From an uncultured Bacteroidales bacterium (lineage in GTDB: Bacteria; Bacteroidota; Bacteroidia; Bacteroidales; UBA7960), in the NCBI GenBank assembly GCA_964589855.1, contig CAZPVB010000002.1, positions 12,274 through 76,273 of the forward strand: a stretch of 64,000 nt of DNA. Direction: 5' to 3'. The position numbers and the translations under genes are program-made. The notes under the pieces were generated by a model that did not search any database, was not told the DNA's origin, and saw nothing but the letters and a program-made list of their open reading frames with translations. Shown piece by piece: positions 3,127 through 64,000 of the stretch. Within the stretch, counting starts at the first letter, position 1. Every line of letters starts with the position of its first letter.

Positions 3127-3194
3127 TACAGATGAATTTGGTGTAAATTTTTTAAAAAATTTTAATTGCAGGTTAAAGAACCGGCAAGCAGCGG

Positions 3195-5099: not shown

Positions 5100-5114
5100 A
5101 TTAATTTTTAAAAT

Positions 5115-27432: not shown

Positions 27433-27473
27433 GTATAATAATGGTGAGTGAGTTTTTCCGTTGCATTTTTTTT

Positions 27474-27507
27474 CAAATTTATGAAAAATGTTAAAATACC
27501 CCACAAA
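27474..27507 (-). promoter_or_regulatory. Candidate promoter of the NTPase gene
   Basis: On the minus strand: TTTG (27507-27504), 22 nt spacer, then TAAATTTG (27481-27474). The spacer is 1 nt longer than the usual 19-21. This would give a 5' UTR of about 35 nt before the ATG at 27432. Confidence 0.35.
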
Positions 27508-48273: not shown

Positions 48274-50922
48274 ATGAAAAGGAAAATCATCATCTGCCTG
48301 TTGATTGGAATGTTATTTCCTATGATGAATTTTGCACAGGATACCAGTTTTGAAGAATATAAAAAACAACAGGAACAAGCCTTCAAAAATTTTGTGAACG
48401 AGCGCGACAGCGTAATGCAGGCCATGAAAAAAGATTTTGAAGATTATGTTGAACAACGCAATCGTGAATATGCCCGGTACCTGAAACAAGAATGGGAAAG
48501 AAGGCAGACAAAAGATGGCGCCCGGCCCGAAACAGACACAAAACCTGAGGTAATCCCGGATTACAATCAAACAGAACCTGAAGAAAGAGGAAATATTGCC
48601 ATTGGACGCATTACGCCTTCTGCAGCATCTATACCGGCAAAAGAAAAATTCAGTGCTCCCATCACCATCCTGCCCAAAGAATCTGCCAAACAAAATATAC
48701 CACAAATGAATGTCTACTTCTATGGTCGCAACTTCAGAGTTGATACAGACAGATCGCTACCTGGTGTGAGAAGCAAAGGCATTACAGAGGAGGAAATTTC
48801 TCAGTGGTTTACAAGTGTAGCAGAAAAAAACTACACCCCCACACTTATCAGCCTTCTTGAAATCGCTGAAGAAACCGGCATGAACGATTGGGCATTATAC
48901 GTACTTACACACAATTTGTCTGCTCAGTTGGCCAAAGACAGGAAACAGGAAACAAAACTGTACACATGGTTTTTGCTTTTACAAGCGGGATATGATATAC
49001 GTTTAGCAAGGCAGGACGACCAACTGGTTTTGCTCATGCCATTCAGCAACATCGTTTATAACACACCCCGTATCGATCTTAACCAAAAAACATATTACAT
49101 GATCGGGGGAAACGGCAACGAACAGGTATACACCTACTCCGAAAGCATGAAGGGTGCTTTTAAAGATTTCGACATGAATTTTTACAAAACCCCTGATTTT
49201 GCCTTGCAAGGTAAAGAAAAAACAATCGGTTTTGCTTTTGGTGAGGATGATTATGAGTTGACCTTGGAATACGACCCCATACTGATAGAGGTACTCGCCG
49301 ACCAACCCCAGGCACACATGAATATTTATCTTGACGCTGATGCCTCCAATACTTTTGTGCAGTCATGTGAAAATGTACTTACACCTCTTATCGAAAACAT
49401 GAACGATACCCAGAAAGTAAACTTCCTGCTGCGGATGGTGCAAACATCGTTTGAATACCAAACCGATATTGAGCATTTTGGCGGGCAAAGGTATATGTTG
49501 CCCGATGAAGTGATACATTACGCATATTCTGATTGCGATGACAGGGCGGTATTATTTGCCTGGCTGGTAAGAAATTTTGCCAACAAACAAGTGGCTGCAC
49601 TTTTATATCCAGAACATCTGGCTACCGCTGTACATTTTGAAAACGGAAATCCCCCGGGAGATTATGTGATGATAGACGGTAAAGAATTTGTTGTGGCAGA
49701 CCCCACATTCATCAATGCACCCATTGGCATCACCATGCCTGATTATGCCCATTTTACGCCCTCCTCATGGATCGTTGATGCCGACAAATACTTCTACGAA
49801 TTATCTGATAAAGTATGGAATAAAGTATTTGAATACGGCGGATACCGAGGGAACAACTATAAAGACATGGCATCTGATGCTTCAGGAAATATTTACATTA
49901 CCGGTTATTTTACCAATGAATTTGGAGATGGCAATACACGTCTTACCTCCAATAGCGAAAACAGACAAGGATTTGTTGCAGCCCTTAACAATGACATGGA
50001 GATCCTCTGGGCACATCATCTTAGGTCAACAGACAATGCCATGGGATTCTCTCTCGTCATAGATGCAAGAAATCAGCTGGTGGTAGCAGGTACTTTTGCA
50101 GAAGACCTAACCATACAGGGAAGAAATATTAAAAATGAAAACAACAAAAAGGATGTTTTTGTAGCTGCTTTTCGTCCACAGGGAAGACTGATATGGGCAG
50201 AAAAGGCCAACTTTGACGCATCAAATACTGACAATGCAGTTGCCTACGCATTACATATGAATCTTGATGGAAAAACCACCAGCTTGCAGTTCTACAACGA
50301 CCCCCGGCAAAGATTAAGCGGCCTTTACAATGACGGAGACCACGGAGTAGTGCTCACAGGAACATTTGGAAATACCAGCGGACTTTCGGTGGAAAGTGCT
50401 CCACAGACTGCCAGTGGAGGGTCATTGAATTATGCCGATATGCTGATCAAAAAAAACCGGGAAATGATCAATCAAAATGTGGAATCTTCTATTGCAGGCC
50501 TGTATGCCGCTATCAACCTTACCAAAGCAGATGGAACCGTGATTCCCGGAACCGCAGCTCAGGAAGCCATTAAAAAAAGTAACCCGTCGTTTTCGCGAAA
50601 CTTCCCTGAAACTTTTAAAAACATCGGTAAGATTTATTTCCTGAAAAATAAATCAGGCGTAATTGAGATCAGAACAGAAAACGGAGATGATGTATATTTC
50701 GACAAACTCCGAATCAAAGATAAATCAACCATACGCATTAATACCCTGGCAAACAATGATGAGCAAATAGACATTATATCCAGAATAGAAGTAGGCAAAA
50801 TGGTTGTTTGGTATCCGTTGAATTACATCAGGTTATACAGGAGAACAGGTGATCTGTTGTTCGACTACAGAAGCAACAACACCAAAGTAACACTAAACAT
50901 GAAAAAAGATATTCTCAGGTAA
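48274..50922 (+). CDS. Secreted hypothetical protein with a charged coiled-coil N-terminal region, a transglutaminase/papain-like core and a C-terminal beta-propeller-like region
   Basis: Signal peptide. Cys421 (nt 49534-49536) lies in YSDCDDRAVLFAWLVRNF and is followed by EHLATAVHF and FVVADPT, giving Cys-His-Asp spacing typical of transglutaminase-like folds. Reiterated G(N/D)IY(I/V)TG-type segments follow. Confidence 0.5.
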   Translation: MKRKIIICLLIGMLFPMMNFAQDTSFEEYKKQQEQAFKNFVNERDSVMQAMKKDFEDYVEQRNREYARYLKQEWERRQTKDGARPETDTKPEVIPDYNQTEPEERGNIAIGRITPSAASIPAKEKFSAPITILPKESAKQNIPQMNVYFYGRNFRVDTDRSLPGVRSKGITEEEISQWFTSVAEKNYTPTLISLLEIAEETGMNDWALYVLTHNLSAQLAKDRKQETKLYTWFLLLQAGYDIRLARQDDQLVLLMPFSNIVYNTPRIDLNQKTYYMIGGNGNEQVYTYSESMKGAFKDFDMNFYKTPDFALQGKEKTIGFAFGEDDYELTLEYDPILIEVLADQPQAHMNIYLDADASNTFVQSCENVLTPLIENMNDTQKVNFLLRMVQTSFEYQTDIEHFGGQRYMLPDEVIHYAYSDCDDRAVLFAWLVRNFANKQVAALLYPEHLATAVHFENGNPPGDYVMIDGKEFVVADPTFINAPIGITMPDYAHFTPSSWIVDADKYFYELSDKVWNKVFEYGGYRGNNYKDMASDASGNIYITGYFTNEFGDGNTRLTSNSENRQGFVAALNNDMEILWAHHLRSTDNAMGFSLVIDARNQLVVAGTFAEDLTIQGRNIKNENNKKDVFVAAFRPQGRLIWAEKANFDASNTDNAVAYALHMNLDGKTTSLQFYNDPRQRLSGLYNDGDHGVVLTGTFGNTSGLSVESAPQTASGGSLNYADMLIKKNREMINQNVESSIAGLYAAINLTKADGTVIPGTAAQEAIKKSNPSFSRNFPETFKNIGKIYFLKNKSGVIEIRTENGDDVYFDKLRIKDKSTIRINTLANNDEQIDIISRIEVGKMVVWYPLNYIRLYRRTGDLLFDYRSNNTKVTLNMKKDILR

Positions 50923-50995: not shown

Positions 50996-52717
50996 ATGCA
51001 TTTAAATATTGCAACCACGCGTCATATTACAGTTTTTCTTTTTCTCTTTTTCTTTCTGAATAATTTTGCCGAAGCCCAACCCCCCTCAGTAAGGCTGCAG
51101 GATGGTGACCTAATGGGTCAGGGACCCTACAGTGAAGGGATGAAAAATGGTTTCTGGGAATATTACGACCAGGATATGACTTTGCGTCAACAGGGGAACT
51201 ACGATATGGGAGAAAGAACCGGAACCTGGACATTTTTTAGCGGCGACAGTATTAAAACTCATGAAGTTAACCTCGATGAAGGCATTTATACCGGCTTTCA
51301 TGATGATGGCAGCGTAAGTGCCACCGGAGGCTGGGATAAAAATGGAAAAACTGGTCAATGGATTTACCTCCACCCAAATGGCGAAAAAAGAGCAGAAGGT
51401 GTTTATGAAAACAACAATAGATCGGGGATTTGGAAATTCTTTGATAACAAAGGGATAATTACCCAAAACCAGGATTATGACACCGGAGAATTCAATGCCT
51501 TCTACCCTGACGGCAACATGAAGGAAGAGGGTTATAGAGAAAATAATGCAAAAAATGGAGAATACAAGTATTATTACAACTCCGGACAATTATGGTCTTG
51601 CGGATGGTACGAATTTGATGAAAAAGTTGGTCTTTGGCAATTTTGGTACGAAGATGGACAAAAATGGGCAGAAATACAACACAATAAAGGGATAAGCAAA
51701 ACATGGTACCCTGGCGGAAAACTGGAAATGCAAGGACCCGTAAGAATGGGAATGAAACAAGGCGAATGGGAATATTATTACCAGAACGGACAAGCAAAAG
51801 AAATTTCAAATTACCATCTTGACAAAAAACATGGAAGCAGCCATGAATTCTTTGAAAACGGCAATGAAAAATTTAAAGGCTCATACAAAAACAATAAACT
51901 GCATGGATACGCAACCTGGTGGATTGAAAACGGAAACAAAGAAATGGAAGGAAAAACTATTGAAGACCTGCAGGATAGTACATGGGTGTATTATTTCCCC
52001 AACGGCATAGTTTCCAGCAAAGGAGACTTCGAAAAAGGTATTCAGCATGGAGATTGGACCTACTTTTACACTACAGGCGAAAAATTAAGATATGGACAAA
52101 TAGAACAAGGAAAGAGAAACGGACTGTGGACTACGCTCTATGAAAGCGGAAGAAAAAGTCATGAAGGACCTTTTAAAAATGATCTGGAACATGGACTGTG
52201 GTCCAGCTGGTTCGAAAACGGACAGATGAAAGACAAGGGATGGTTTTATGAAGCGCAAATGGATAGCTTGTGGGAAGGATGGCACCAGAACGGCCAAAAA
52301 AGATATGAAGTGCACTATAAGAATGGATTACGGGAAGGAAAATCTGTAAACTGGTTGGAAAACGGAAACTTACAAAGGGTTGCACACTACAGCGATGGGA
52401 TGCTAAACGGCAGTTTCTCAAACTACTACACCAATGGAAACATCATGGAAGAAGGCACCTATGCCAACGATATGAAAACCGGTAGGTGGTATTTCTATGA
52501 CGAAAGAGGTCAAAAACTCAGACAGATGGAGTTTAAAAACAACAGAATGCACGGTGAGTTCACATCTTTTTACCAAAATGGAGAGATAAGAGAAAATGGT
52601 AATTACCAGGAAGGTGTTAAGCAAGGAAGATGGAATATCTACAATCAGCAAGGGAAACGCATCAGGAGAGTTGACTTTGAAAACGGAAATATTACCAATA
52701 TGAAAACATACGATTAA
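50996..52717 (+). CDS. MORN-repeat-variant (YwqK-like) repeat protein, secreted
   Basis: More than 15 tandem repeats of about 23 aa with the form G.W..YY.NGQ....G.Y..G...G.W. N-terminal signal-like segment. Confidence 0.75.
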   Translation: MHLNIATTRHITVFLFLFFFLNNFAEAQPPSVRLQDGDLMGQGPYSEGMKNGFWEYYDQDMTLRQQGNYDMGERTGTWTFFSGDSIKTHEVNLDEGIYTGFHDDGSVSATGGWDKNGKTGQWIYLHPNGEKRAEGVYENNNRSGIWKFFDNKGIITQNQDYDTGEFNAFYPDGNMKEEGYRENNAKNGEYKYYYNSGQLWSCGWYEFDEKVGLWQFWYEDGQKWAEIQHNKGISKTWYPGGKLEMQGPVRMGMKQGEWEYYYQNGQAKEISNYHLDKKHGSSHEFFENGNEKFKGSYKNNKLHGYATWWIENGNKEMEGKTIEDLQDSTWVYYFPNGIVSSKGDFEKGIQHGDWTYFYTTGEKLRYGQIEQGKRNGLWTTLYESGRKSHEGPFKNDLEHGLWSSWFENGQMKDKGWFYEAQMDSLWEGWHQNGQKRYEVHYKNGLREGKSVNWLENGNLQRVAHYSDGMLNGSFSNYYTNGNIMEEGTYANDMKTGRWYFYDERGQKLRQMEFKNNRMHGEFTSFYQNGEIRENGNYQEGVKQGRWNIYNQQGKRIRRVDFENGNITNMKTYD

Positions 52718-52839
52718 TGTTTTTAACCTGGAAACCAAAAAGAATTTTCAGAGTAGTTTGTTGACTAAAATTGTTTATTTTTGTTTTGAAAAATTTTTCA
52801 GAACCTTACTTTTCCCATAATTCAACAAACTTATTAGTG

Positions 52840-54075
52840 ATGAAAATCTTAAAAATAACAGTTTTTTGTTTCGTTGTATTTACCATGATCTATCCATTGC
52901 ACGCCCACGTAAAAACAGGCATTGAAGTGCTGCGCGAAAAAAAATTCGAACCCCTCTCAGGGAAACGTGTCGGACTGATCACCAATCCTACGGGTGTAGA
53001 CCGCAACCTGAAATCTACGATTGATATTTTGGCAGAGGCAGACAATTTCGAACTGATCGCTTTATATGGACCAGAGCATGGCGTGCGGGGCAACTACAAC
53101 GCAGGTGACCTGGTTGGTAATGACTATGATACCAAAACCGGTATTCCCATGTTCAGCCTTTACGGGAGCGCCCGGAAACCAACCCCCGAAATGCTTGAAG
53201 ATATTGACGTGTTAATCTATGACATCCAGGATATTGGATCCAGATCGTACACATACATCAGCACAATGGGATTAGCCATGGAAGCCGCTGCGGAAAATGA
53301 TATTGAGTTTATGGTACTGGACAGACCTAATCCACTGGGTGGCTATAAATTTGAAGGACCTCTGGTTGAAGAAGGATTTCTGTCTTTTGTCAGCCAATTC
53401 CCAATCCCTTATGTTCATGGTTTTACAGTGGGCGAACTGGCAACCTTTCTCAACAATGAAGGACTGCTCGCAGATAGGGTTAAAGCAAACCTGACCGTAA
53501 TCAACATGAAAGGATGGGAACGACGAATGGCATTTGAAGACACTGGATTGCCCTGGGTAATGTCTTCACCCCACATCCCGCAATACCAGTCTGCTTATTT
53601 TTATCCCGTCTCCGGTATTCTCGGAGAACTCTATACCATCAACATCGGAGTAGGATATACTCTCCCCTTTCAGGTATTTGGCGCACCCTGGATTGAAGAT
53701 CCCGAAACACTTGCAGAAAATCTTAATCAACTAAAACTTCCCGGAGTACAGTTCCGCCCAATCCATTACCGTCCTTATTACACGGAACTGAAAGGGCAAG
53801 ACCTTGGAGGAGTGCAGGTACACATTCCTTATATGGTCAAATCCGATCTTTCTATTATTCAGTTTTATGTGATGCAGGAAATATATAAGTTATACCCTGA
53901 ATATAACGTTTTTGAAATGGCTCCCGAACGACTGGATATGTTTGACAAAGTGTGTGGGACAGATAAGATCAGAAAAACTTTTGAACAAAGATTCCTGGTT
54001 GAAGATATTCTGGACATGTGGACCGAAGAATCAGAAAGGTTTGCTAAAAAAGCAAGTGAATATTTTGTTTATTAG
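52840..54075 (+). CDS. DUF1343-family protein (NamZ-like exo-beta-N-acetylmuramidase)
   Basis: Motifs VGLITNPTGVD, LYGPEHG, DVLIYDIQDIGSRSYTY and LDRPNPLGG. The ATG at 52840 gives a signal peptide (MKILKITVFCFVVF). Confidence 0.75.
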   Translation: MKILKITVFCFVVFTMIYPLHAHVKTGIEVLREKKFEPLSGKRVGLITNPTGVDRNLKSTIDILAEADNFELIALYGPEHGVRGNYNAGDLVGNDYDTKTGIPMFSLYGSARKPTPEMLEDIDVLIYDIQDIGSRSYTYISTMGLAMEAAAENDIEFMVLDRPNPLGGYKFEGPLVEEGFLSFVSQFPIPYVHGFTVGELATFLNNEGLLADRVKANLTVINMKGWERRMAFEDTGLPWVMSSPHIPQYQSAYFYPVSGILGELYTINIGVGYTLPFQVFGAPWIEDPETLAENLNQLKLPGVQFRPIHYRPYYTELKGQDLGGVQVHIPYMVKSDLSIIQFYVMQEIYKLYPEYNVFEMAPERLDMFDKVCGTDKIRKTFEQRFLVEDILDMWTEESERFAKKASEYFVY

Positions 54076-54287
54076 AAACTGATAACAGAATTTTTTGCTA
54101 TATTACAAGTCGTTTCTAAAACCCTTTGAGTAGTCGAAGACCCTCGAAGTGGTTGCCAATTATTAGTTAGTTAGCAATAGTAGAATCTAATATTTTAGCT
54201 TTTAAACTGTACTCATAATATAAATCCGCAAAGTGCCTTTTGTGTATTATAAGTTTATTATTATTTTCCCTCAAAAAAATAAAACAT

Positions 54288-55616
54288 ATGCAAATCAACA
54301 GAAGATCTTTTATTCAGAAAGCAGCAATGGGAGCTGCAGGTGCCGGGATGTTCACCATCCTTCCCGGTAAGGTTTGGAGTGCTTCCACAGCACCCTCCGA
54401 TACAATCAATGTAGCACTTATTGGTTGCCGAAACCACGGTTTCAAAATACTGAAAGACCATTTGAGATACGATGATGCCAATTGTGTGGCACTTTGCGAT
54501 GTAGATGAAAACATCCTTCAGGAAAGAGCAACCACGATTATACAGGATTACAACCAACATCCAGAGTTGTACAAAGACTTCCGGAAAATGCTGGAACAAA
54601 AAGACATTGATGCGGTAATCATTGGAACCCCCGACCATTGGCATTGTCTTAATTTTGTTTATGCAGCCCAGGAAGGCAAAGATATTTATGTGGAAAAACC
54701 GCTGGCAAATACCATTGCCGAGTGCGATATCATGGTTAGAGCCGCCAACAGATACAACATTGTTGTGCAGGTTGGTCAGCAGCAGCGCAGCAATGTTGCT
54801 TTTGGGGAACCTGTTGAAATGATTAAAAATGGGCACATCGGTAATCTGAGAAAGGTAAATATTTGGGCCAATTTTAATTACGGTTTGGGCACCTCTTTTG
54901 CCGAAGATGCCCCCGCACCCCGGGGTGTTGATTACGATATGTGGCTCGGCCCTGCTCCGGAGAGACCTTTTAACAGAGCCCGCTTCCATGGATCATGGAG
55001 GCATTTCTGGGACTATGGCGGAGGATTATTCTCCGATTGGGGTGTGCATTTGATCGATATGGGATTATGGACTAAAGACATGATCAAGGCTCCTGATACA
55101 ACCATGGTTTATGCCACCAATAACTCCGCACAGAAACGTATGAAAGAAACCTTTGATAACATGAATGTAGTATACCCCAAAAAAGACTTTGTCATCAATT
55201 TCGATATGACCGCGGGGGTTCAAAATGGTCCCTGGGATCAACTCTTTGGGGTAAGCTTTGTGGGCGACAAAGCAACCATTGTTACCAACCGCAACGGATA
55301 TAAAGTATTGCCCGAATACGACAGCGAAAAAAGCGCTTTTAAAACACACAGTCAAACCCTTACGGAGGCCCGGGAATCACACCCTGTCCATGTACGAAAT
55401 TTCCTTGATTGTATCAAAACAAGGAAAACACCTGATTGTACTCCTGAAATAGGCAGAGCTGCTGCTCTACATGCCCACATTGGCAACATTGCGGCACGAA
55501 CCGGCGAAAACATCCTGATGTGGGATGACCAGAAAAGTCGCTTTACCAATAGTGATAAAGCCAATGAATACATCACACCTGAATACAGAAAACCCTGGGT
55601 GCTGCCAAAAATTTAA
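54288..55616 (+). CDS. TAT-exported Gfo/Idh/MocA-family oxidoreductase
   Basis: Twin-arginine signal MQINRRSFIQKAAMGAAGAG. Rossmann segment INVALIGCRNHGF. EKP motif (YVEKPLA). Confidence 0.85.
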   Translation: MQINRRSFIQKAAMGAAGAGMFTILPGKVWSASTAPSDTINVALIGCRNHGFKILKDHLRYDDANCVALCDVDENILQERATTIIQDYNQHPELYKDFRKMLEQKDIDAVIIGTPDHWHCLNFVYAAQEGKDIYVEKPLANTIAECDIMVRAANRYNIVVQVGQQQRSNVAFGEPVEMIKNGHIGNLRKVNIWANFNYGLGTSFAEDAPAPRGVDYDMWLGPAPERPFNRARFHGSWRHFWDYGGGLFSDWGVHLIDMGLWTKDMIKAPDTTMVYATNNSAQKRMKETFDNMNVVYPKKDFVINFDMTAGVQNGPWDQLFGVSFVGDKATIVTNRNGYKVLPEYDSEKSAFKTHSQTLTEARESHPVHVRNFLDCIKTRKTPDCTPEIGRAAALHAHIGNIAARTGENILMWDDQKSRFTNSDKANEYITPEYRKPWVLPKI

Positions 55617-55640
55617 TCCTTCATAAAAAATTCCTGAAAG

Positions 55641-56495
55641 ATGCAAACACGAAGAAAGTTTATAAAATCCATGATCGCAGGTTCTGCCGGTTTATATGCT
55701 GCCGGAGCATTGCAATCCTGCAACATGTTTACGCAAAACAAACTAAATAATATTGGATACATTACAGGCATTCTGGGAAAAAATCTCGGAGAAAAAGACT
55801 GGAAAAGTATACTCTCGCAAACAGCCGCTTTTGGATATACCGAAATTGAAACCGGTAACTTCCTGGGAGAATCAGCAAAAAGTTTCCTCAATTTCTGCAA
55901 TGATACCGGACTAAAGCCCATTGCCGGTGGTATAGGCATGACCGATGATACCGATGAACTGAATCGTGGACTCGACAAACTCAATGAACTTGAATTGCAG
56001 TATGCCATAAACTATTGGCCATGGTTCGTGGGTTCCCCTTTTTCTCTCGACGACTGCAAAAAAAGCGTGGAAACACTCAACAAAAATGGTGAAATCTGCA
56101 AATCACGCGGATTAACACTCTGCTGGCACAATCACGACCATGAGTTTGTTCCTATGGAAACAGGATTGCCTTTCGATTATATGATGGACAATACCGATTC
56201 TGAGCTGGTAAAATGTGAACTGGACATCTACTGGACACAAAAAGGGGGAGCAGATCCGGTACAAACGCTCAAAAAGTACCCTGGCAGATATCCCATACTG
56301 CACGTTAAAGATATGGCTCCGGGTGAAGAACAGGATTTTGAATGCCCCGGAAAGGGTATTATCGAGTGGGAGTCTGTTTTTGCCGAATCTACAAAACAAA
56401 ACATACAACACTATTTTGTTGAAAAAGATGGCGCAGTTGATGGTTTGGGATGCCTGGAAAGCGCTGCAGAATTCCTGAAAAACATTCGTTTTTAA
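55641..56495 (+). CDS. TAT-exported xylose-isomerase-like TIM-barrel protein (sugar phosphate isomerase/epimerase family)
   Basis: Twin-arginine signal MQTRRKFIKSMIAGSAG. Motifs HNHDHEF and YFVEKD are typical of the AP-endonuclease-2/xylose-isomerase-like fold. Confidence 0.7.
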   Translation: MQTRRKFIKSMIAGSAGLYAAGALQSCNMFTQNKLNNIGYITGILGKNLGEKDWKSILSQTAAFGYTEIETGNFLGESAKSFLNFCNDTGLKPIAGGIGMTDDTDELNRGLDKLNELELQYAINYWPWFVGSPFSLDDCKKSVETLNKNGEICKSRGLTLCWHNHDHEFVPMETGLPFDYMMDNTDSELVKCELDIYWTQKGGADPVQTLKKYPGRYPILHVKDMAPGEEQDFECPGKGIIEWESVFAESTKQNIQHYFVEKDGAVDGLGCLESAAEFLKNIRF

Positions 56496-56840
56496 AGTGC
56501 ATGTATCAGGCTTTCATCCATTTCCCCAAATTCAACACAGAAAACTATTTTTTGCTGGTTTTATATAAAAGGGTGAACTGAACCAGGATAATAACATAAT
56601 AACATTGATGCAAACGAAGACTGAGGTTTGTATATAGCCGGTGGTGGATTAAAACAAACCCCAATGATGACCATCAGCATAAAAGGAACGCTGACAACAC
56701 AGATGCTTACAGCAATCGCTGATGATCCGGGTTTTTTATCTGCGAAAATGAGCGTTGCCTGCATCTGCGATGAACATTTTTCGCAAAAAAAGCAACCAGA
56801 TAAAATAATATCTTTCTCCAAACCCTGCAGTACAGAAAAC

Positions 56841-56880
56841 AAAAAACCCGGTAAAAAAATAATACCGGGTTTTTTATTTT
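56841..56880. terminator. Bidirectional rho-independent terminator
   Basis: 13-bp perfect stem aaaaaacccggta (56841-56853) / taccgggtttttt (56863-56875), flanked by A-runs and T-runs on both sides. It lies 20 nt beyond the stop codon of the 56900-58771 gene. Confidence 0.8.
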
Positions 56881-56899
56881 GAATCAGCACAATAAAAAA

Positions 56900-58771
56900 T
56901 TATCCTTTGCTGATAATCTTCTCATAATCTTCTACTGAACCACCATCAAGGCATGTTTCAATGATTCGTTTACCCATATCCGATAAACCAGGTACAATAT
57001 ACTGAGGTAACTCTTTTTTAAAGAAATCATACAGCATTTCTGCCCCTTTATCATATCCTTCAAACCCTACTTCAGGTTGCTTGTAAACCTTCAGGAAACG
57101 TGAAGGGATCTTCGCATTTTCAATGGTAAGATAATTGAGTTCGTATCCCAAAAGCGGACATCTGGCTGCCTGATACTGATCAGCCCTGAATCTGGAATTT
57201 CCTCTGTGGGTAAGGTATTCGCGCATCAGAAGTTGCGGCATAAAACCTACTTTCCAAATGCCTACATGTTGGTTGGGAGCGATTACATAACGTGTGATGG
57301 TATTCTCCACAATCTGATCAAGTAGCAGGTTTGAGTGTGTTACCTTTTCTCCGGTTGCAAATGGCCAGTAAGAGCCTACACCTTCACTCTGCATGCCGCC
57401 CTGATCAACAATGCTGGGGTTGGCATGCCCGCGGGGCGACACCAATCTCCAGACCCATGCAAGAGCAGGGGGAAGAAGATGGAACAGTCCAAAAATTCCA
57501 AAACCTGGATTTTCCGCTGTCGTTGGGGGAGTGCGTACACCAAAGCTACGTACATCAATAGATACAGGTTCATTCACAACATTAGGAAAAGAATCGCGGG
57601 GTACTACCACCCTGGGGTTGGGGCAACGTTTGCCGGGCGCATCTTCAATATGGTTCCAGATCAAAGCAGTGCCGCCAGGATTGGTATCAATATTCAGAAA
57701 CAATAATGGTTTTTTGCTGTTGATCGTTATTTTTTCCAGATTAGGATCAGAACCATATTCAAGAATATTATCTGTTCGCACAAACCATGCATTTTCAGCA
57801 TCCTGTATCCGGAGTCTTTTGCTTCCGGTCTGAAATGTTGGGTGAACCATGCCCATATCATCGCAAATAGGTCGGGTTTCACAAAATCGTGGTACGGTTA
57901 TACTCCTTATTTCATTAGTTTGAAGATTTTTACCAATGAGCACTTCTCCGGTAGGTAGTCTTAATATGTGCTGTAGCATTTCGGTTTTACCTCCACCGCT
58001 GGCACCCTCGTGCATAAAACGGGTAATATTGTCGTAAGGACTGATAGATTCAACACCAGAACAATGTGCTGTAGACCATCCTTCATCTTCACCCATACTA
58101 AGAATGACTCCATAAATCCCTTTTTTAGCACTGGGACCAGGATATAAATTATAAGAAAATATCTCATATACCTCGGTGCAACGATTATGTACAACTACCT
58201 GTTTTCCGTCAAGATGCGTATGACGGAACGGAGGAGCAATATACATCACCGCCTTGATGACTTTTCCTTCAGGAATGGTATCTTTGGGAACTATTTTTTG
58301 TAGCATGGCCAATCCCATGGCAAAAAATCCTGCATTATCCGGAACAATAGCCAAACCATATTCCGGTTTATCCAGGTTTCCTATCTGAAAATAAAATGCT
58401 GCCAGATTTTGTTTTTCCATCCACACAAAAGTTTCTTTGCGGAGTTTGTCAAAAGAATACCCAAACCGGTCTTTAAACCTTGGCTGATCAGAGGGTTTAC
58501 AATCGCCTATGGCCATGGTATTAGGATCGCGACGGCGCATGTAAGGATCAACATAATTAGCAGAAATACCATTGGTTACCCTGTGAACGATGGCTTCTGT
58601 TATTTCACCTTTGCCTTCTACATTGTACTTCACTTCAAAATAGTTACTGTCGGGTCCGTTTACAGCAGCATCTGCCAATTGCTCTACTGTATCAAAAACC
58701 TTAAAAGAAGGGGCATTGGAAATTAAATGATCGGCCTCCGGGGGCAGAACTAACCTTTTTTTCGTGTCCAT
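56900..58771 (-). CDS. Uncharacterised 623-aa protein with an HprK/PEPCK-like P-loop (resembles the DUF4914 family)
   Basis: Walker-A-like HEGASGGGKTEML (nt 57980-58006) matches the G.SG.GK[ST]E form used by HPr kinase and PEP carboxykinase-fold enzymes. No signal peptide. Confidence 0.6.
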   Translation of the reverse strand: MDTKKRLVLPPEADHLISNAPSFKVFDTVEQLADAAVNGPDSNYFEVKYNVEGKGEITEAIVHRVTNGISANYVDPYMRRRDPNTMAIGDCKPSDQPRFKDRFGYSFDKLRKETFVWMEKQNLAAFYFQIGNLDKPEYGLAIVPDNAGFFAMGLAMLQKIVPKDTIPEGKVIKAVMYIAPPFRHTHLDGKQVVVHNRCTEVYEIFSYNLYPGPSAKKGIYGVILSMGEDEGWSTAHCSGVESISPYDNITRFMHEGASGGGKTEMLQHILRLPTGEVLIGKNLQTNEIRSITVPRFCETRPICDDMGMVHPTFQTGSKRLRIQDAENAWFVRTDNILEYGSDPNLEKITINSKKPLLFLNIDTNPGGTALIWNHIEDAPGKRCPNPRVVVPRDSFPNVVNEPVSIDVRSFGVRTPPTTAENPGFGIFGLFHLLPPALAWVWRLVSPRGHANPSIVDQGGMQSEGVGSYWPFATGEKVTHSNLLLDQIVENTITRYVIAPNQHVGIWKVGFMPQLLMREYLTHRGNSRFRADQYQAARCPLLGYELNYLTIENAKIPSRFLKVYKQPEVGFEGYDKGAEMLYDFFKKELPQYIVPGLSDMGKRIIETCLDGGSVEDYEKIISKG

Positions 58772-59477
58772 AAAATAATGATTTGTGAATAATATAATTA
58801 AATAAGTAGTTTATTTTAATAAATCTTAGAATAAAAATCAGCAACTAAGCACATGTGTTTCAGGTGTGGGCAAAAGATTGGTTTCCGCGCATAAACTCAT
58901 CAATTCAACAAATATCCTGAAATCTTTTGAATAGTTTACATAGTTATCTCGGGTCATGAAATTTTTTTATGCATCTTAAAATTATGTGGGGAAAGACAAA
59001 TTCTTTACCTTTCATAATTCAACAGCCTTCGACCGATGGTGTAAAAAAAGGGGAAAATTAATTTCCAGTAAAAAAACCTGTCGTAAATCATTGCTTGTCA
59101 AAAACTTAGAGAAACGTTTTAAGGAAAACGTAACTTATAACATGGCAAAGATAGTTATTATTCTGAATTTTTCTAATCAGGATAAACAATCCTGGATAAA
59201 AGAATATATTGAAATATACAATTCATAGACCACAGGACTGAAATTGTTTACCAAACAAATAAACATCCGAAAAAACAACGAACACATTGTATCCATCTTA
59301 CTTTTCCCGGATTGAAAGGCACGATTGCCTGAGCGCAGGGCATTGGCCCACGGAATATAGGTAACATGAATTTAACCTTGCCTTTTGCAACGCATCCTGC
59401 AACCTTACATAAAGTTCAACAGGATTTTATCGTTGGGGTGCATTAAGTTGGGAGCTTCGCCCGGCAATCTGTTTCTC

Positions 59478-60470
59478 TTATTTTTGCATGGCATCATCGA
59501 AAGCGATACCAGAGGGTTCAAAATCAATATTTTTGGTAAAAGTACACGACTCTGTCGCGCCGGCTTCTCTGTCCATACCACTGTCTTCCCACTCAATGGA
59601 AAGAGGCCCCTGGTAACCAATATCATTCAATGCTCTGATTATCCTTTCAAAATCAATTTTACCGCGCCCTATGCTGCGAAAGTCCCAAAATCGGCGGTGA
59701 TCTCCAAATTGGGTGTGTCCTCCAAAAACACCAACATCTTTGGGTACATCACTCCAGTGAACATCCTTCATATGTACATGAAAAATACGATCGGCAAAAT
59801 CATAGATAAATTTCACGTAATCTACACCCTGATAACCAAGATGACTGGGATCGTAGTTAAAACCAAAGGCAGGATGGTCATCAAGCACTTTCAATGCACT
59901 TTGGGCTGATGCAATATCGAAAGCAATCTCAGTAGGATGCACCTCAAGGGCAAACTTTACACCCATTTTCTCATAAGCATCCAAAATCGGTTTCCATCGG
60001 GTGGCAAATTCTTCAAATCCCCTGTCAATCATTATTTGTGGTGTTGGCGGAAAAGAATACAGCAAATGCCAGATTGGGCTGCCTGTAAAACCTACAACGG
60101 TATCCAGTCCCAGTCTTTTAGCAACTTTTCCTGTTTCAATAACCTCTTCAGCAGCCCGCTGCCTTACCCCTTCCGGATCTCCGTCGCCCCAAATGTATTC
60201 GGGTAAAATTCCTTTATGGCGTTCATCTATCGGATCACATACGCACTGTCCTACAAGGTGGGTAGAAATGGTAAAAAGTTGTAATCCGTATTTTTGCAAT
60301 AATTCTTTTCTTTGATCACAGTAGTTTTGGTCGGCTTTATCAATTTCCATATGATCGCCCCAGGTGCATAATTCCACTCCGTCGTAGCCAAAGGTTTTGG
60401 CTTTTTCGCACATGGTCTCTATGGGCAGATCTGCCCATTGTCCGGTGAATAAGGTTACGGGTCTCGACAT
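59478..60470 (-). CDS. Cytoplasmic xylose-isomerase-like TIM-barrel protein (sugar phosphate isomerase/epimerase family)
   Basis: Motifs [22 protein letters not shown] and SIEWED are characteristic of the fold. No signal peptide. Confidence 0.75.
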
Positions 60471-60709
60471 AATTTTTCCTTTTTTAGTGAATATTAGATT
60501 CAGGTTTGTAATCTTTTTTTAAACAAAGCAAATATATAGTCAAATTTGGCATTCTGCAAATCAATTAAACTTTTAAATGGGTATATTTTTACAATTCTTG
60601 CAGCATTTTTGTAACTTCATTCGTATACAATGATAATTGTCTCTTACAAAAATTACCAGAAAGTTTCACCCTTTTAAAACCAATTTTATTTATCTCAAAA
60701 CCCTTAAAA

Positions 60710-61939
60710 ATGAAAGACATATCGATTATTACTATATTTATGATTTCTGTACTTTTCCTGTCTTCCTGCGAGAAAAGAAATGAAAAGCCTGTAAATGATC
60801 CCAAAACTCTGACGCTGACAACCAAAGCAGAAGAGGTGATAAAAAGCAGCAATCAATTTGGTATTGATTTCTTTACCCATGTTGCCAAAGATGAAAACAG
60901 CAATATGATGGTCTCCCCGCTGAGCGCAAGCATTGCGCTTACCATGCTGTTAAATGGTGCCGACAATGAAACTTACAACCAAATTAAGGAAATGCTTGAT
61001 TATGATGAAAATATGACTATAGAGGAGATCAATGAGGCATATATGAGCCTTGTTCCTCAATTGATCAATGCCGACGAAAAGGTAACCACCACGATTGCCA
61101 ATGCGGTTTTTTACCGCATGAATTTCAGTTTCCGGCAATCTTTTCTTGATCAACTCATCAATAATTTTGATGCCCATGCAGAAAGCCTCGACTTTAACAA
61201 CCCAGAGGCAGTAAATACCATTAACGAATGGGCTGGTGATCAGACAAACGGAAAAATTGACAAAGTAATTGAAGCTATTGACCCTTTAACAGTCATGTTT
61301 ATAATGAATGCTCTCTACTTTAAAGGTGACTGGACCAATCAGTTTGATGCCTCCAGTACTACCTCCCTTCCTTTCTACTTCGATAACAACACGCAGGAAG
61401 ATGTGGAAACCATGACCGGAGAAATTCCTGCAAAAACTTTCGGAACCAATGAGTTTAGTGCTTTAGAACTACCCTACGGACGTAAAAATTTCTCAATGGT
61501 GCTCATCAAACCCCAGCATACGCTCAATGAATTCTACAACAACTTTGATGACCAAATATGGCAAGAAATAACTGAATCCTTTCAAAATCAGGAAAACTGG
61601 GTTCCGGTGCAAGTTCAATTGCCCAAATTCAGTTTCGAATATGAAAAAACACTGAACAAAATTTTAGAAGAAATGGGCATGGTAGATGCCTTCAGCGAAG
61701 CATTGGCGGACCTTTCAGGTATTTCTGAGGAAGAACTTTATGTAAGTTTTGTGAAACAAAACACGTTTATAGATGTGAACGAAGAGGGTACGGAGGCAGC
61801 AGCAGTAACAACCATTGGGATCAATACAGAAAGTGTAGGTCCGGTATTTTTTGCCAACAAACCTTTCATTTTTGCAATTCGCGAACGAACCACCAATACA
61901 CTACTTTTTATGGGTAGTGTAGAAAATCCTAATGATTAG
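60710..61939 (+). CDS. Serpin (family I4 serine protease inhibitor), lipoprotein
   Basis: Lipobox LSSC. Serpin body motifs (NMMVSPLSASIALTMLLNGA, NALYFKGDW). Canonical hinge NEEGTEAAAVT followed by ..ANKPFIFAIRE. Confidence 0.85.
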   Translation: MKDISIITIFMISVLFLSSCEKRNEKPVNDPKTLTLTTKAEEVIKSSNQFGIDFFTHVAKDENSNMMVSPLSASIALTMLLNGADNETYNQIKEMLDYDENMTIEEINEAYMSLVPQLINADEKVTTTIANAVFYRMNFSFRQSFLDQLINNFDAHAESLDFNNPEAVNTINEWAGDQTNGKIDKVIEAIDPLTVMFIMNALYFKGDWTNQFDASSTTSLPFYFDNNTQEDVETMTGEIPAKTFGTNEFSALELPYGRKNFSMVLIKPQHTLNEFYNNFDDQIWQEITESFQNQENWVPVQVQLPKFSFEYEKTLNKILEEMGMVDAFSEALADLSGISEEELYVSFVKQNTFIDVNEEGTEAAAVTTIGINTESVGPVFFANKPFIFAIRERTTNTLLFMGSVENPND

Positions 61940-62078
61940 TTATGAAGCACATCCTTTAAAAATCCTATTTCACAGATATTTTCACAATTCTCCTGAAAAC
62001 ATTTTCTGTACATTCATCCACTCACCTGCCATTTTTTTGGCGTATCTTTGAAAAAAGAAACTCAAAAAATCATTATTC

Positions 62079-64000
62079 ATGCAGGAAAAGAAGAAATTGT
62101 TTTTATTAGATGCCATGGCGCTCATCTACAGGGCTTATTTTGCCCTGAACCGAAACCCCAGAATCAACTCAAAAGGATTGAACACTTCGGCAGTTCTGGG
62201 TTTCGCCAATACATTGCTTGAAGTGCTCAAAAAAGAGAACCCCAGTCATATTGCTGTCGCATTTGATGCATTTGCCCCCACACAAAGAAAAACTGATTTC
62301 ACACAATACAAAGCCAACCGTGAAGATACTCCTGAAGATATCGTGCTGGCGATCCCTTACATTAAAAAGCTTATTGAAGGATTTCATATTCCTGTGCTTG
62401 AAGTTCCCGGATATGAGGCCGATGATATTGTAGGTACCCTGGCGAAAAAAGCAGAAAAAGAAAATTTCACTGTTTTCATGATGACTTCCGATAAAGATTT
62501 CGGACAATTGGTATCCGAAAATATTTTTATGTACAAACCTGCACGCATGGGGAATGGGGCAGAAGTTTGGGGAGTAAAGGAGGTATGTGAAAAATTCGCC
62601 ATCAACGAACCTGATCAGCTCATTGACATTCTTGGGTTATGGGGCGATGCATCAGATAATATACCAGGAGTGCCGGGAATTGGCGAAAAAAAGGCAAAAA
62701 AACTCATTGGTGAATTCGGTTCTATTGAGAATATTCTGGAAAATTTAGATAAAGTTGCAGAAAAACGCAGTCGCGAAAGTTTGAAAGAAAATGCTCAGCA
62801 GGCACTCATGTCAAAAAGCCTTGCCACCATTATTTTGGATGTACCTGTAGAATGGGACGAGGAAAAACTCAAAAGAAAAGATCCTGACCCCAACGTATTG
62901 ATACCTCTGTTCGATGAACTTGAATTCAGAACCTATGCCAAACGGGTCTTTGAACATATCAGCGAAGAAGCACCCCAGGCAATGCCTTCCAAAGAAAAAG
63001 CCTCTGCGCAGATGGATATGTTTGCAGGAACAGATGCTTTTGAAGACCCCAAAGTGTTGGTGAAAAACAAAGCAGAAAAATTGATGAAGGATCATGATTT
63101 TCAACTGGCAGACACAACAGAAAAGATTAACAACCTGCTTGACCAGTTAAACCAAAACAATTCCTTTTGCTTTGACACTGAAACTACAGGACTTACAAGT
63201 AACAACACACAACTTGTTGGCATTGCCTTTTCTGTGAAACCACAACAGGCATGGTATGTACCTTTTCCCGAAGACCAAAAGAAAGCAAAAGAATTAGCGG
63301 AAAAATTCAAACAGGTCTTTGAAGATCCTGATATTGAAAAAACCGGGCAAAACCTAAAGTTTGATATAGGGGTACTTAAAAATTATGAGATACATGTACA
63401 GGGAAAATTATTTGATACCATGATTGCCCACTACTTGCTGCAACCAGATATGCGCCACAATATGGATGTTCTTTCCGAAACATACCTGAACCATCAACCC
63501 ATGAGCATTGAACTGCTCATTGGTAAAAAGGGTAAAAATCAGAAAAGCATGCGCGATGTACCCATCGATATCATTACAGCTTATGCATGCGAAGATGCAG
63601 ATATAACCTTAAAACTCAGAAAAGTATTCGAACCCCAGCTCAGAGAATATAAACTGGAGAAATTATTTTATGAAATGGAAACCCCATTGATATATGTACT
63701 TTCTGATATGGAATCAAACGGTGTAAAACTGGATACAGATGCTTTGGCAGAATATTCACAGAAACTGCAAAAAGACATAGAAAACATTGAAAAAGAAATT
63801 TATGACATTGCCGGAATTCAGTTTAATATTGGATCCCCCAAACAGTTGGGAGAAATATTATTTGATAAGCTCAAAATTGTGGAAAAGGCAAAAAAGACCA
63901 AAACCAAACAATACAGTACCAGTGAAGATGTACTTTCTAAACTGGCTCATAAACATCCCATCGTTGAAAAAATTCTGAACTACCGGTCGCTCACCAAACT
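62079..64000 (+). CDS. polA: DNA polymerase I, 5' part (runs off the window end)
   Basis: Open frame from the ATG at 62079 to the window end; it has no stop, so it is absent from the ORF track. 5'-nuclease motifs LFLLDAMALIYRAYFA, GYEADDIVGTLA and GDASDNIPGVPGIGEKKA. 3'-5' exonuclease motif CFDTETTGL. Ends in ...HPIVEKILNYRSLTKL. Confidence 0.9.
   Translation, partial: MQEKKKLFLLDAMALIYRAYFALNRNPRINSKGLNTSAVLGFANTLLEVLKKENPSHIAVAFDAFAPTQRKTDFTQYKANREDTPEDIVLAIPYIKKLIEGFHIPVLEVPGYEADDIVGTLAKKAEKENFTVFMMTSDKDFGQLVSENIFMYKPARMGNGAEVWGVKEVCEKFAINEPDQLIDILGLWGDASDNIPGVPGIGEKKAKKLIGEFGSIENILENLDKVAEKRSRESLKENAQQALMSKSLATIILDVPVEWDEEKLKRKDPDPNVLIPLFDELEFRTYAKRVFEHISEEAPQAMPSKEKASAQMDMFAGTDAFEDPKVLVKNKAEKLMKDHDFQLADTTEKINNLLDQLNQNNSFCFDTETTGLTSNNTQLVGIAFSVKPQQAWYVPFPEDQKKAKELAEKFKQVFEDPDIEKTGQNLKFDIGVLKNYEIHVQGKLFDTMIAHYLLQPDMRHNMDVLSETYLNHQPMSIELLIGKKGKNQKSMRDVPIDIITAYACEDADITLKLRKVFEPQLREYKLEKLFYEMETPLIYVLSDMESNGVKLDTDALAEYSQKLQKDIENIEKEIYDIAGIQFNIGSPKQLGEILFDKLKIVEKAKKTKTKQYSTSEDVLSKLAHKHPIVEKILNYRSLTK

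Follow-up and report, generated by a model that had tools for sequence, protein, structure and literature searches.

Three functionally independent units, brought together by happenstance in this Bacteroidales lineage, are the probable content of the interval 54288-60470 of the window (the whole 64-kb stretch of DNA that was analysed). The grouping of the four genes is at most a chance juxtaposition, and recurrence is limited to the first pair. The DUF4914 protein encoded by the third gene is probably a PEP/oxaloacetate-type carboxykinase. The features of the region are as follows.

54288..55616, forward strand: gene 1, TAT-exported Gfo/Idh/MocA oxidoreductase, 442 aa (ORF; Pfam, NCBIfam and PDB matches)
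55641..56495, forward strand: gene 2, xylose-isomerase-like TIM barrel with a TAT motif, 284 aa (ORF; Pfam and PDB matches)
56900..58771, reverse strand: gene 3, DUF4914 protein, 623 aa (ORF; Pfam PF16260, AlphaFold, Foldseek)
58772..59477, reverse strand: spacer of 706 nt between the cytoplasmic barrel and DUF4914 (sequence; alignment with the sister contig L001)
59478..60470, reverse strand: gene 4, cytoplasmic xylose-isomerase-like TIM barrel, 330 aa (ORF; Pfam PF01261, PDB matches)
60529..60560, reverse strand: Bacteroidetes-type promoter-like site, TTTG..TAnnTTTG (pattern search)

The ORF check and Pfam placed all four ORFs where the preliminary description had put them, in the families that it had named. 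Genes 1 and 2 are separated by exactly 24 nt. The two pairs had been called both divergent and convergent; only the second term holds, as two forward genes are followed by two reverse genes. Also as described, the interval 54288-60470 is free of transporter and regulator genes. A signal peptide is absent from both the DUF4914 protein and the cytoplasmic barrel.

The oxidoreductase has the N- and C-terminal domains of the Gfo/Idh/MocA family (PF01408, 4.4e-16; PF19051, 1.7e-23; PF02894, 2.5e-09), an N-terminal Rossmann domain being followed by the C-terminal alpha/beta domain. Its TAT signal scores 21.4 bits with TIGR01409 against a cut-off of 16.7, and its RR-x-F motif (NRRSFIQ) is kept in homologues on other contigs (n=25 homologues). 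The corresponding motif of the exported barrel (TRRKFIK) is likewise kept in its homologues on other contigs, and the TAT signals claimed for both proteins are thus real. The best curated match of the oxidoreductase is the BT_2158 glycoside 3-dehydrogenase family (NCBIfam BT_2158_fam, NF058561). At 190.5 bits the match is far below the curated cut-off of 750 bits for this equivalog model, and the protein is therefore assigned to a family paralogous to BT_2158. The best solved relatives are PDB 8tdf (2.7e-35) and 8tdh (2.4e-32), and orthologues are 63-89% identical. From these sequence matches the oxidoreductase is a probable periplasmic glycoside/sugar 3-dehydrogenase-type enzyme.

The exported barrel belongs to PF01261 (AP_endonuc_2, xylose-isomerase-like TIM barrel; 8.2e-13). 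Its PDB matches are 8tcs (4.9e-24), 8tcd (5.6e-24) and 8bvk, the Agrobacterium beta-eliminase AtOGE (1.6e-13). It is a probable 3-keto-glycoside eliminase or hydratase partner of the oxidoreductase. A ..LQSC motif suggests that it is possibly a lipoprotein.

Pairing of this kind recurs among the 81 loci of the oxidoreductase family that were surveyed. A TIM-barrel partner is found on the same strand and within 1.5 kb, on either side, in 14 loci; in a further 6 (phmmer) to 9 (clustering) the neighbourhood includes a 3-keto-disaccharide hydrolase (PF06439). One or the other is a neighbour in about a quarter of the 81 loci. The preliminary description had stated that Gfo/Idh/MocA and TIM-barrel pairs carry out glycoside oxidation followed by elimination or isomerisation. 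This is supported by the BT_2158-family match, by the solved relatives of the two proteins (8tdf/8tdh and 8tcs/8tcd) and by the recurrent pairing. By homology and recurrence, then, the oxidoreductase and the exported barrel represent a known kind of two-gene periplasmic module, with sugar oxidation as its predicted chemistry. The oxidoreductase, probably with tightly bound NAD(P), would oxidise a sugar or glycoside, with C3 as the most likely position. The exported barrel, as a presumably metal-dependent enzyme, would then either eliminate the aglycone from the keto-sugar by beta-elimination or hydrate the resulting glycal. This proposal is modelled on the Bacteroides BT2156-BT2159 and the Agrobacterium OGE/HYD systems.

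The 3-keto-glycoside pathway of B. thetaiotaomicron BT2156-BT2160 has been described by genetics and biochemistry (PMC8121099). The window shares with this locus (8tcd/8tdf series) a TAT-exported Gfo/Idh/MocA protein (BT2158) and a xylose-isomerase-like barrel (BT2156-type), both of them periplasmic. The domain architectures match, and the periplasmic pair is homologous to BT2158/BT2156. On other contigs the oxidoreductase family adjoins PF06439 hydrolases of the BT2157 type, as in the Bacteroides locus. Unlike that locus, the window lacks a DUF1080 gene, a second Gfo reductase (BT2159) and a SusR-type regulator.

The cytoplasmic barrel matches PF01261 with 149.7 bits and aligns over its full length with two solved proteins. 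The closer is SCO6571 of Streptomyces coelicolor (2zds; 6.9e-123, residues 1-328, ~57% identity), which is clearly in the same orthologous group. It was deposited as a 'putative DNA-binding protein', a name so uninformative that the match adds no mechanism. The other is the Agrobacterium tumefaciens 2-hydroxy-3-keto-glucal hydratase AtHYD (8ro4; 3.5e-44, residues 17-327, ~33% identity). In Deinococcus, Novosphingobium and Arthrobacter replicons, from three phyla, the orthologue sits after a cytoplasmic Gfo/Idh/MocA gene, and a GMC dehydrogenase often accompanies this pairing. By its sequence relatives the barrel appears to be a stand-alone enzyme of the SCO6571/AtHYD group, related to keto-sugar hydratases. 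It would probably hydrate or isomerise a keto-sugar, for example a 2-hydroxy-3-keto-glycal.

The AtOGE beta-eliminase has been described (PMC10628242). AtOGE (8BVK) and AtHYD (8RO4) are both TIM-barrel enzymes that act on 3-keto-glycosides or their glycal product, and they work together with a Gfo reductase (PMC10628242); no reductase is present in the window. Unlike the Agrobacterium enzymes, the two barrels of the window are in separate compartments, lie on opposite strands and are not syntenic elsewhere. Even so, the periplasmic chemistry could conceivably feed into the cytoplasm, since the relatives of the cytoplasmic barrel include the hydratase that acts on the Agrobacterium eliminase product. 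This homology, in a gene that lies only 3 kb from the periplasmic pair, may point to a genuine functional connection. The periplasmic pair would release a 2-hydroxy-3-keto-glycal, which would be imported and hydrated by the AtHYD-like barrel, and DUF4914, although it sits between them, would be unrelated. All three protein families are used in an oxidation-elimination-hydration-reduction route (PMC10628242), and a stretch of 6 kb holds the three genes in two related contigs. However, an orthologue of the cytoplasmic barrel occurs in 0/81 oxidoreductase loci, the two matches there being distant paralogues (E 1e-18 and 8e-9). The cytoplasmic Gfo reductase, its conserved partner elsewhere, has no counterpart in the whole 64-kb window, and a transporter is absent. 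A shared route of these three genes is consequently doubtful.

The preliminary description had tentatively linked all four genes in a single split pathway, in which the periplasmic pair modifies a sugar and the cytoplasmic barrel, with DUF4914 as a putative kinase, here taken as one for sugars, processes the product. The genes are close together both in the window and in L001, a sister contig of the same lineage (96% identical), and a 2-hydroxy-3-keto-glucal hydratase is among the relatives of the cytoplasmic barrel. The arrangement was sought within +/- 10 kb of DUF4914 in 80 genome loci, L001 included. The cytoplasmic barrel adjoins DUF4914 in L001 only, and in 0/79 other genomes does an orthologue of the oxidoreductase or of either barrel lie near DUF4914. 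Stray phmmer matches in these 79 genomes are one to the oxidoreductase at 7 kb, one to the exported barrel and three weak ones to barrels at 5-6 kb. DUF4914, in turn, is near the oxidoreductase in 0/81 loci. As one co-occurring cluster the four genes are thus largely refuted at the level of co-location. Two cases that seem to speak for the cluster are a Bacteroidetes locus (L049), where DUF4914 is closely followed by a 3-keto-disaccharide hydrolase and a TIM barrel, and a Phycisphaerae contig in which a divergent TIM barrel adjoins it. Both agree with chance expectation, as a genome has tens of copies of these families. Even where synteny is lacking, genes that are scattered in other genomes may be co-regulated or share a pathway.

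The description of the cytoplasmic barrel and DUF4914 as a pair also needs correction, as the 706-nt spacer splits them. The spacer has no convincing ORF; its 80-aa ORF at 58986-59228 has no Pfam match, and the spacer itself has no Rfam match. In the alignment with L001, two stretches of the spacer (59146-59176 and 59060-59103) stand out as nearly identical; both are found in the window and L001 only. The first ends in TATCTTTG, a promoter-like sequence resembling the Bacteroidetes -7 element. With such an element inside the spacer, co-transcription of the two genes is not evident. A further promoter-like site (60529..60560) lies 59 nt upstream of the start codon of the cytoplasmic barrel. Its pattern has 4 matches in the window where ~3 are expected by chance, and the site is therefore weak evidence on its own.

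The DUF4914 protein matches PF16260 over its full length (907 bits). The P-loop that had been reported is present, as a Walker A motif GASGGGKT at residues 256-263. No match was found with the Pfam PEPCK models (PEPCK_ATP, PEPCK_GTP), PF16260 being the only hit at E up to 10, and PDB sequence searches with the single sequence or a profile found none. The AlphaFold model is confident (pLDDT 93.3, pTM 0.91). In Foldseek its best 50 matches are all PEPCKs of the ATP-, GTP- or PPi-type (E 1.3e-22 to 5e-20), with alignments of 620-715 columns, or about 1,000 for the PPi-type enzymes. TM-scores against PEPCKs reach 0.76 (target-normalised) and 0.73 (query-normalised), and the predicted structure has the complete two-domain PEPCK fold.

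The catalytic residues of PEPCKs can be traced in the same protein. Alignment of DUF4914 with E. coli PckA by hhalign (91.7% probability) places S258-G-G-G-K262-T and D304-D305 on S250/K254/T255 and D268/D269 of PckA; both the kinase-1a P-loop and the kinase-2 DD motif are invariant in divergent DUF4914 subfamilies. Y210-x5-K216-K217 aligns with Y207 and K212/K213, H236-C-S with H232, and N385-P-R387 with N331/R333. The Mn2+ ligands of PckA (K213, H232, D269) thus correspond to K217, H236 and D305, and its substrate residues Y207 and R333 to Y210 and R387. The aligned residues are invariant even in DUF4914 subfamilies that are 27-39% identical, except H236, which is at least 90% conserved. R79 and R81 are also invariant. 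Around R65 of PckA, the N-terminal arginine for oxaloacetate/PEP binding, the profile alignment is unreliable; R81 is a candidate counterpart of R65 by eye, from a comparison of R81-D-P with R65-S-P.

DUF4914 and PckA (1aq2, 1os1) have the two-domain fold in common (TM-score 0.76 when normalised by PckA), and the P-loop, DD, Y-x4-KK-G, H-C-S and N-x-R motifs occur in one order. The 19-residue spacing between K213 and H232 is the same in both. They differ in that identity is only 12-14%, the stretch from the P-loop lysine to the DD motif is 28 residues longer in DUF4914, and a C-terminal helical extension is present. GKSE replaces GKTT, and no conserved nucleotide pocket of the PckA type can be recognised. 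The PPi-PEPCKs, which occur in anaerobes, are a precedent for a PEPCK class that sequence divergence had hidden from homology searches. These enzymes (Propionibacterium freudenreichii 8e1u; 6k31) gave the highest query-normalised TM-scores, 0.69-0.73. At ~1,100 residues with extra domains they are much larger than the 623-residue DUF4914 protein, and identity is ~11%.

On its modelled fold and aligned residues, DUF4914 belongs to the PEP carboxykinase superfamily as a divergent member. Its most likely reaction would be a phosphoryl transfer that has a nucleotide (or pyrophosphate) on one side and an enolate/carboxylate substrate on the other, and in which CO2 is taken up or released. It is probably a carboxykinase-type enzyme at the PEP/oxaloacetate node, which would act in the central carbon metabolism of anaerobes and not phosphorylate a sugar of the neighbouring genes. 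The earlier label of 'putative kinase' drew on a phosphotransferase P-loop that is indeed there. The protein nevertheless resembles no sugar kinase: its predicted PEPCK fold is full-length, the PEPCK substrate and metal residues are retained, and no sugar-kinase family was matched in Pfam, also at E up to 10. Moreover, the 3-keto-glycoside pathways that are known do without a dedicated kinase (PMC8121099, PMC10628242), and 706 nt separate the barrel from DUF4914. A single pathway split between the four genes is hence highly improbable.

The likeness to HprK that had been proposed alongside that to PEPCK fared less well, with no match to Pfam Hpr_kinase at E up to 10. HPr kinase/phosphorylase has the P-loop G-x-S-G-x-G-K-S-E followed by a DD motif, and its PEPCK-like part is the C-terminal domain only. 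DUF4914 is alike at the motif level, in P-loop form and subsequent DD motif; its P-loop, G-A-S-G-G-G-K-S/T-E, is nearer to the HprK form than to the GLSGTGKTT of PckA. An HTH-cupin regulator, the commonest DUF4914 neighbour (25/80 loci, upstream), would suit an HprK/P-type protein kinase/phosphorylase or another regulatory P-loop enzyme, although it is uninformative on the substrate. Unlike HprK, however, DUF4914 aligns structurally with whole PEPCKs across both domains, and the N-terminal domain and the PEPCK Mn and PEP/oxaloacetate residues (Y207, K213, H232, D269, R333 in PckA) are kept. A regulatory enzyme in place of a metabolic carboxykinase is accordingly unlikely.

DUF4914 is very widespread, with 50-80% identity across anaerobic phyla; it is a separate, internally conserved family and usually stands alone. 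No mention of it was found in the literature searched. Neighbours in other phyla include a fumarase, a CitMHS carboxylate transporter and an IMPase/FBPase-family gene. In 4 of the 80 Bacteroidota loci the next gene downstream, in the same orientation, encodes a beta-carbonic anhydrase, and in a fifth such a gene lies at 1.4 kb; these loci are few and some are mutually related. The same gene is also directly downstream of DUF4914, on the same strand, in an Elusimicrobia contig.

The four genes at 54288-60470 probably form three independent units, and one of these, the DUF4914 (PF16260) protein, would be a carboxykinase-type enzyme acting at the phosphoenolpyruvate (PEP)/oxaloacetate node. The first unit is a putative periplasmic module that would oxidise its substrate and then eliminate or hydrate the product. 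The second is a predicted solitary relative of the keto-sugar hydratases typified by AtHYD of Agrobacterium and SCO6571 of Streptomyces coelicolor. The third, DUF4914, is by fold and catalytic residues a stand-alone member of the PEP carboxykinase (PEPCK) superfamily, with a predicted reaction in which phosphoryl transfer is coupled to carboxylation or decarboxylation.

Genes of the interval and their Pfam assignments
54288-55616, + strand: gene 1, Gfo/Idh/MocA Rossmann and C-terminal domains (442 aa)
55641-56495, + strand: gene 2, xylose-isomerase-like TIM barrel, AP_endonuc_2 (284 aa)
56900-58771, - strand: gene 3, full-length DUF4914 (623 aa; 907 bits)
59478-60470, - strand: gene 4, xylose-isomerase-like TIM barrel, AP_endonuc_2 (330 aa)

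The preliminary description combined these genes into one split periplasmic/cytoplasmic sugar pathway with a putative kinase. Its ORF positions agree with ours, including the 24-nt gap after which gene 2 follows gene 1, and its family assignments for genes 1, 2 and 4 are confirmed by the Pfam domains. The proposed TAT export of genes 1 and 2 is also upheld: gene 1 passes the TAT-signal model, and both exported proteins start with an RR-x-F motif, which their homologues on many contigs retain. Genes 3 and 4, described as cytoplasmic, have no signal peptide. However, the two pairs said to be divergent are convergent, and between genes 4 and 3 there is a spacer of 706 nt that holds no credible ORF. 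Pfam identifies the upstream flanking gene as an exo-beta-N-acetylmuramidase (NamZ) and the downstream one as a serpin, and neither seems to be connected with the sugar genes. An operon of NamZ and the oxidoreductase was ruled out, as NamZ lies near the oxidoreductase in 0 of 86 loci.

The co-location of the four genes was examined from both sides. Genes 1, 2 and 4 were searched for within 10 kb on each side of DUF4914 in 80 genome loci. The cytoplasmic barrel adjoins DUF4914 only in L001, a sister contig of the same lineage (96% identity), and each of the other 79 loci lacks orthologues of all three genes. The more sensitive phmmer search of these loci added no more than isolated matches: an oxidoreductase at a distance of 7 kb, a homologue of the exported barrel, and three weak barrel matches at 5-6 kb. 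Sugar-type neighbours of DUF4914 occur in two loci, L049 (a DUF1080 gene and a barrel) and a Phycisphaerae contig (a divergent barrel), which is about the level expected by chance for families with tens of copies per genome. The reciprocal sample comprised 80 metagenome loci of the oxidoreductase and three contigs obtained by exact look-up. None of the fetched oxidoreductase loci holds DUF4914. They also lack orthologues of the cytoplasmic barrel: both matches to it are distant paralogues. Thus the families do not co-occur in the sense of co-location, an outcome that the preliminary description itself had named as refuting its cluster. A single four-gene sugar pathway is highly improbable, and the set should not be carried on as a candidate pathway, which spares work on a false operon. 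A relay of the three sugar genes is unlikely too. The passing of an eliminase product from the periplasm to the cytoplasmic barrel is chemically conceivable, but conserved gene order gives this hand-over no backing.

The role proposed for the periplasmic pair has fared better. The oxidoreductase family is well conserved, with best matches 63-89% identical. Its best curated match, the BT_2158 glycoside 3-dehydrogenase family, scores 190 bits against a cut-off of 750, so gene 1 belongs to a paralogous family. The closest solved structures are 8tdf and 8tdh for the oxidoreductase and 8tcs, 8tcd and 8tct for the exported barrel; the Agrobacterium eliminase AtOGE (8bvk) is more distant from the latter. 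An exported-barrel homologue lies within 1.5 kb of the oxidoreductase, on the same strand and on either side, in 14 of 81 non-redundant loci, and a PF06439 3-keto-disaccharide hydrolase is nearby in six (phmmer) or nine (clustering). The same set of partners is found in the 3-keto-glycoside locus BT2156-BT2160 of Bacteroides thetaiotaomicron, in which BT2157 (DUF1080) cleaves 3-keto-trehalose and BT2156 is an IolE-like barrel (PMC8121099). A TIM-barrel beta-eliminase of Agrobacterium converts 3-keto-glucosides to the aglycone and a 2-hydroxy-3-keto-glycal (PMC10628242). Given these partners and this precedent, homology and the repeated pairing provide a sound basis for a predicted role in oxidation followed by elimination or isomerisation. 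With this pair, one more family would join the oxidative, non-hydrolytic pathway by which Bacteroidota cleave glycosides, a route described recently. In the exported barrel the TAT region is followed by a Cys (..GALQSC), and a Cys occupies the equivalent position in several homologues; the protein may be a TAT-exported lipoprotein. In another oxidoreductase locus, L085, a canonical ATP-PEPCK is encoded at 3112-5391 (- strand), 2.6 kb from the oxidoreductase orthologue. It has 759 aa, shares 62% identity with PckA of E. coli and is extended at its C-terminus by about 220 residues; its proximity to the oxidoreductase is judged coincidental.

The cytoplasmic barrel shares about 57% identity with SCO6571 (2zds; 6.9e-123) and about 33% with AtHYD (8ro4; 3.5e-44), the 2-hydroxy-3-keto-glucal hydratase of Agrobacterium. 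A literature search by the hydratase name returned no match. Orthologues of 51-64% identity on large Deinococcus, Novosphingobium and Arthrobacter replicons always directly follow a cytoplasmic Gfo/Idh/MocA gene. In the vicinity there are often GMC oxidoreductases, more TIM barrels, a GH3 enzyme or a C-glycoside-lyase-like set. AtHYD is likewise listed together with a Gfo oxidoreductase (PMC10628242). This usual partner, a second Gfo gene, is absent from the whole 64-kb window. A Bacteroidetes-type promoter-like site 59 nt upstream of gene 4 fits a solitary gene.

DUF4914 is a large family of at least 8,000 clusters at the 90% identity level, and its degree of conservation is unusual. Members within the Bacteroidales are 64-81% identical, and those of Cellulosilyticum, Vallitalea, Dictyoglomus, Elusimicrobia, Endomicrobia, Phycisphaerae and Gastranaerophilus are 49-57% identical. 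Identity across the anaerobic phyla, which include relatives of gut Bacteroidales, is 50-80%. Full-length divergent representatives number only about ten at 50% clustering. Neither DUF4914 nor PF16260 is mentioned in the literature searched, and sources label the protein simply 'DUF4914 family protein'. Pfam at E values up to 10 returned DUF4914 alone for gene 3. Against the PDB, the single sequence had no match and the profile gave chance matches only (E at least 0.5). Comparing the DUF4914 profile with PckA of E. coli (sequence from NC_000913) gave a probability of 91.7% (E 8e-7, 240 columns), and a full-length local run gave 90.8%. The comparison aligns the following residues.

Residues aligned between DUF4914 and PckA in the profile alignment
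DUF4914 Y210-P-G-P-S-A-K216-K217-G with PckA Y207-G-G-E-M-K212-K213-G
DUF4914 H236-C-S with PckA H232-C-S
DUF4914 S258-G-G-G-K262-T with PckA S250-G-T-G-K254-T255
DUF4914 D304-D305 with PckA D268-D269
DUF4914 N385-P-R387 with PckA N331-T-R333

In PEPCK these residues bind Mn, form the P-loop or hold PEP/oxaloacetate. Even in DUF4914 subfamilies that share just 27-39% identity with the window protein they do not vary, with the exception of H236 (at least 90% conserved). An AlphaFold model from 19 sequences (at least 63% identical) was poor over residues 230-570 (pLDDT 52.7). The repeat, with an alignment of 137 sequences to which other phyla and one divergent subfamily had been added, reached pLDDT 93.3 and pTM 0.91. 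Every one of the best 50 Foldseek matches to this model in the PDB is a PEP carboxykinase, and the GTP, ATP and PPi classes are all represented (E 1.3e-22 to 5e-20). The alignments run over 620-715 columns where the match is an ATP- or GTP-type enzyme and over about 1,000 where it is of the PPi type. At 11-14% identity, the TM-score is as high as 0.76 when normalised by PckA of E. coli, and 0.73 for the PPi enzyme when normalised by the query. These matches show that DUF4914 has a whole PEPCK fold. The preliminary description called it an HprK/PEPCK-like P-loop protein; it is more than an HprK-like P-loop domain, and an HprK-type regulatory kinase is a very unlikely identity for the protein taken alone. 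Fold and catalytic residues are PEPCK-type. DUF4914 is an uncharacterised branch of the superfamily that cannot be recognised by sequence, and the sugar genes are added members of known families.

The gene is mostly solitary amid housekeeping genes, and no canonical pckA lies near it in the fetched DUF4914 loci. The commonest neighbour is an HTH_3-Cupin_2 regulator (about 183 aa), directly upstream on the same strand in 25 of the 80 loci (e.g. L041:9030-9581). A beta-carbonic anhydrase (PF00484) is directly downstream on the same strand in four Bacteroidota loci (L010, L033, L060 and L073; about 34-110 nt) and 1.4 kb away in a fifth (L056), and on an Elusimicrobia contig its gene (L174:8869-9420) overlaps the DUF4914 stop codon. 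A class II PurE-like AIR carboxylase (PF00731, SAHK motif) is downstream in five of the 80 (L030, L041, L052, L054 and L071), overlapping the stop codon in three; this is another CO2-using enzyme, and the association may be lineage synteny. Fumarase subunits are encoded two genes downstream in Cellulosilyticum, an inositol-monophosphatase/FBPase-family gene overlaps the stop codon in Dictyoglomus, and a CitMHS carboxylate transporter and a P-II protein are divergently upstream in Gastranaerophilus. Each of these is anecdotal, but jointly they point to CO2 and C4-acid metabolism and not to glycoside catabolism. A search of the 64-kb window revealed no remnant of the regulator, a carbonic anhydrase, PurE or DUF1080.

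DUF4914 is a real lead as a widespread PEPCK-like enzyme of anaerobes without an assigned function. It is conceivable, and we suggest it only tentatively, that the family makes up a fourth, hitherto unrecognised class of PEP carboxykinase, or is a closely related C3/C4 carboxykinase with another phosphoryl donor or 2-oxo-acid substrate, in the central carbon metabolism of anaerobic carbohydrate fermenters across many phyla. These would include the Bacteroidales, Clostridia, Elusimicrobia, Dictyoglomi, Melainabacteria and Phycisphaerae. If DUF4914 catalyses a carboxykinase reaction, models of CO2 fixation, succinate/propionate formation and gluconeogenesis in these organisms are short of one enzyme.

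Some other features of the window were recorded. Positions 964-22800 hold an alginate/uronate-type polysaccharide utilisation region with a chondroitinase-B-like lyase, an alginate lyase, a TonB-dependent receptor, a hybrid two-component regulator and a 1645-aa T9SS-sorted protein with DUF5123; it was rejected as context for the four genes because it lies 30 kb away. At the thresholds used, Pfam matched none of the large ORFs at 11480-13870 (796 aa), 23260-27504 (1414 aa), 27981-29489 (502 aa) and 48274-50922 (882 aa). Rfam gave zero matches in 52000-62500. A scan for sigma-70 promoters and terminators gave the counts expected from shuffled sequence and carries no information; a further type of promoter is in use in Bacteroidota. 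The spacer upstream of DUF4914 has diverged from that of L001 (706 nt and 927 nt, respectively) except for two near-identical blocks, 59060-59103 and 59146-59176 (- strand), with one mismatch each. The blocks have no Rfam match and are absent from all other loci. At its end, the block at 59146-59176 carries TATCTTTG, a Bacteroidetes -7-like element that precedes the DUF4914 start codon by about 370 nt, which suggests that the gene may have its own promoter and a long leader.
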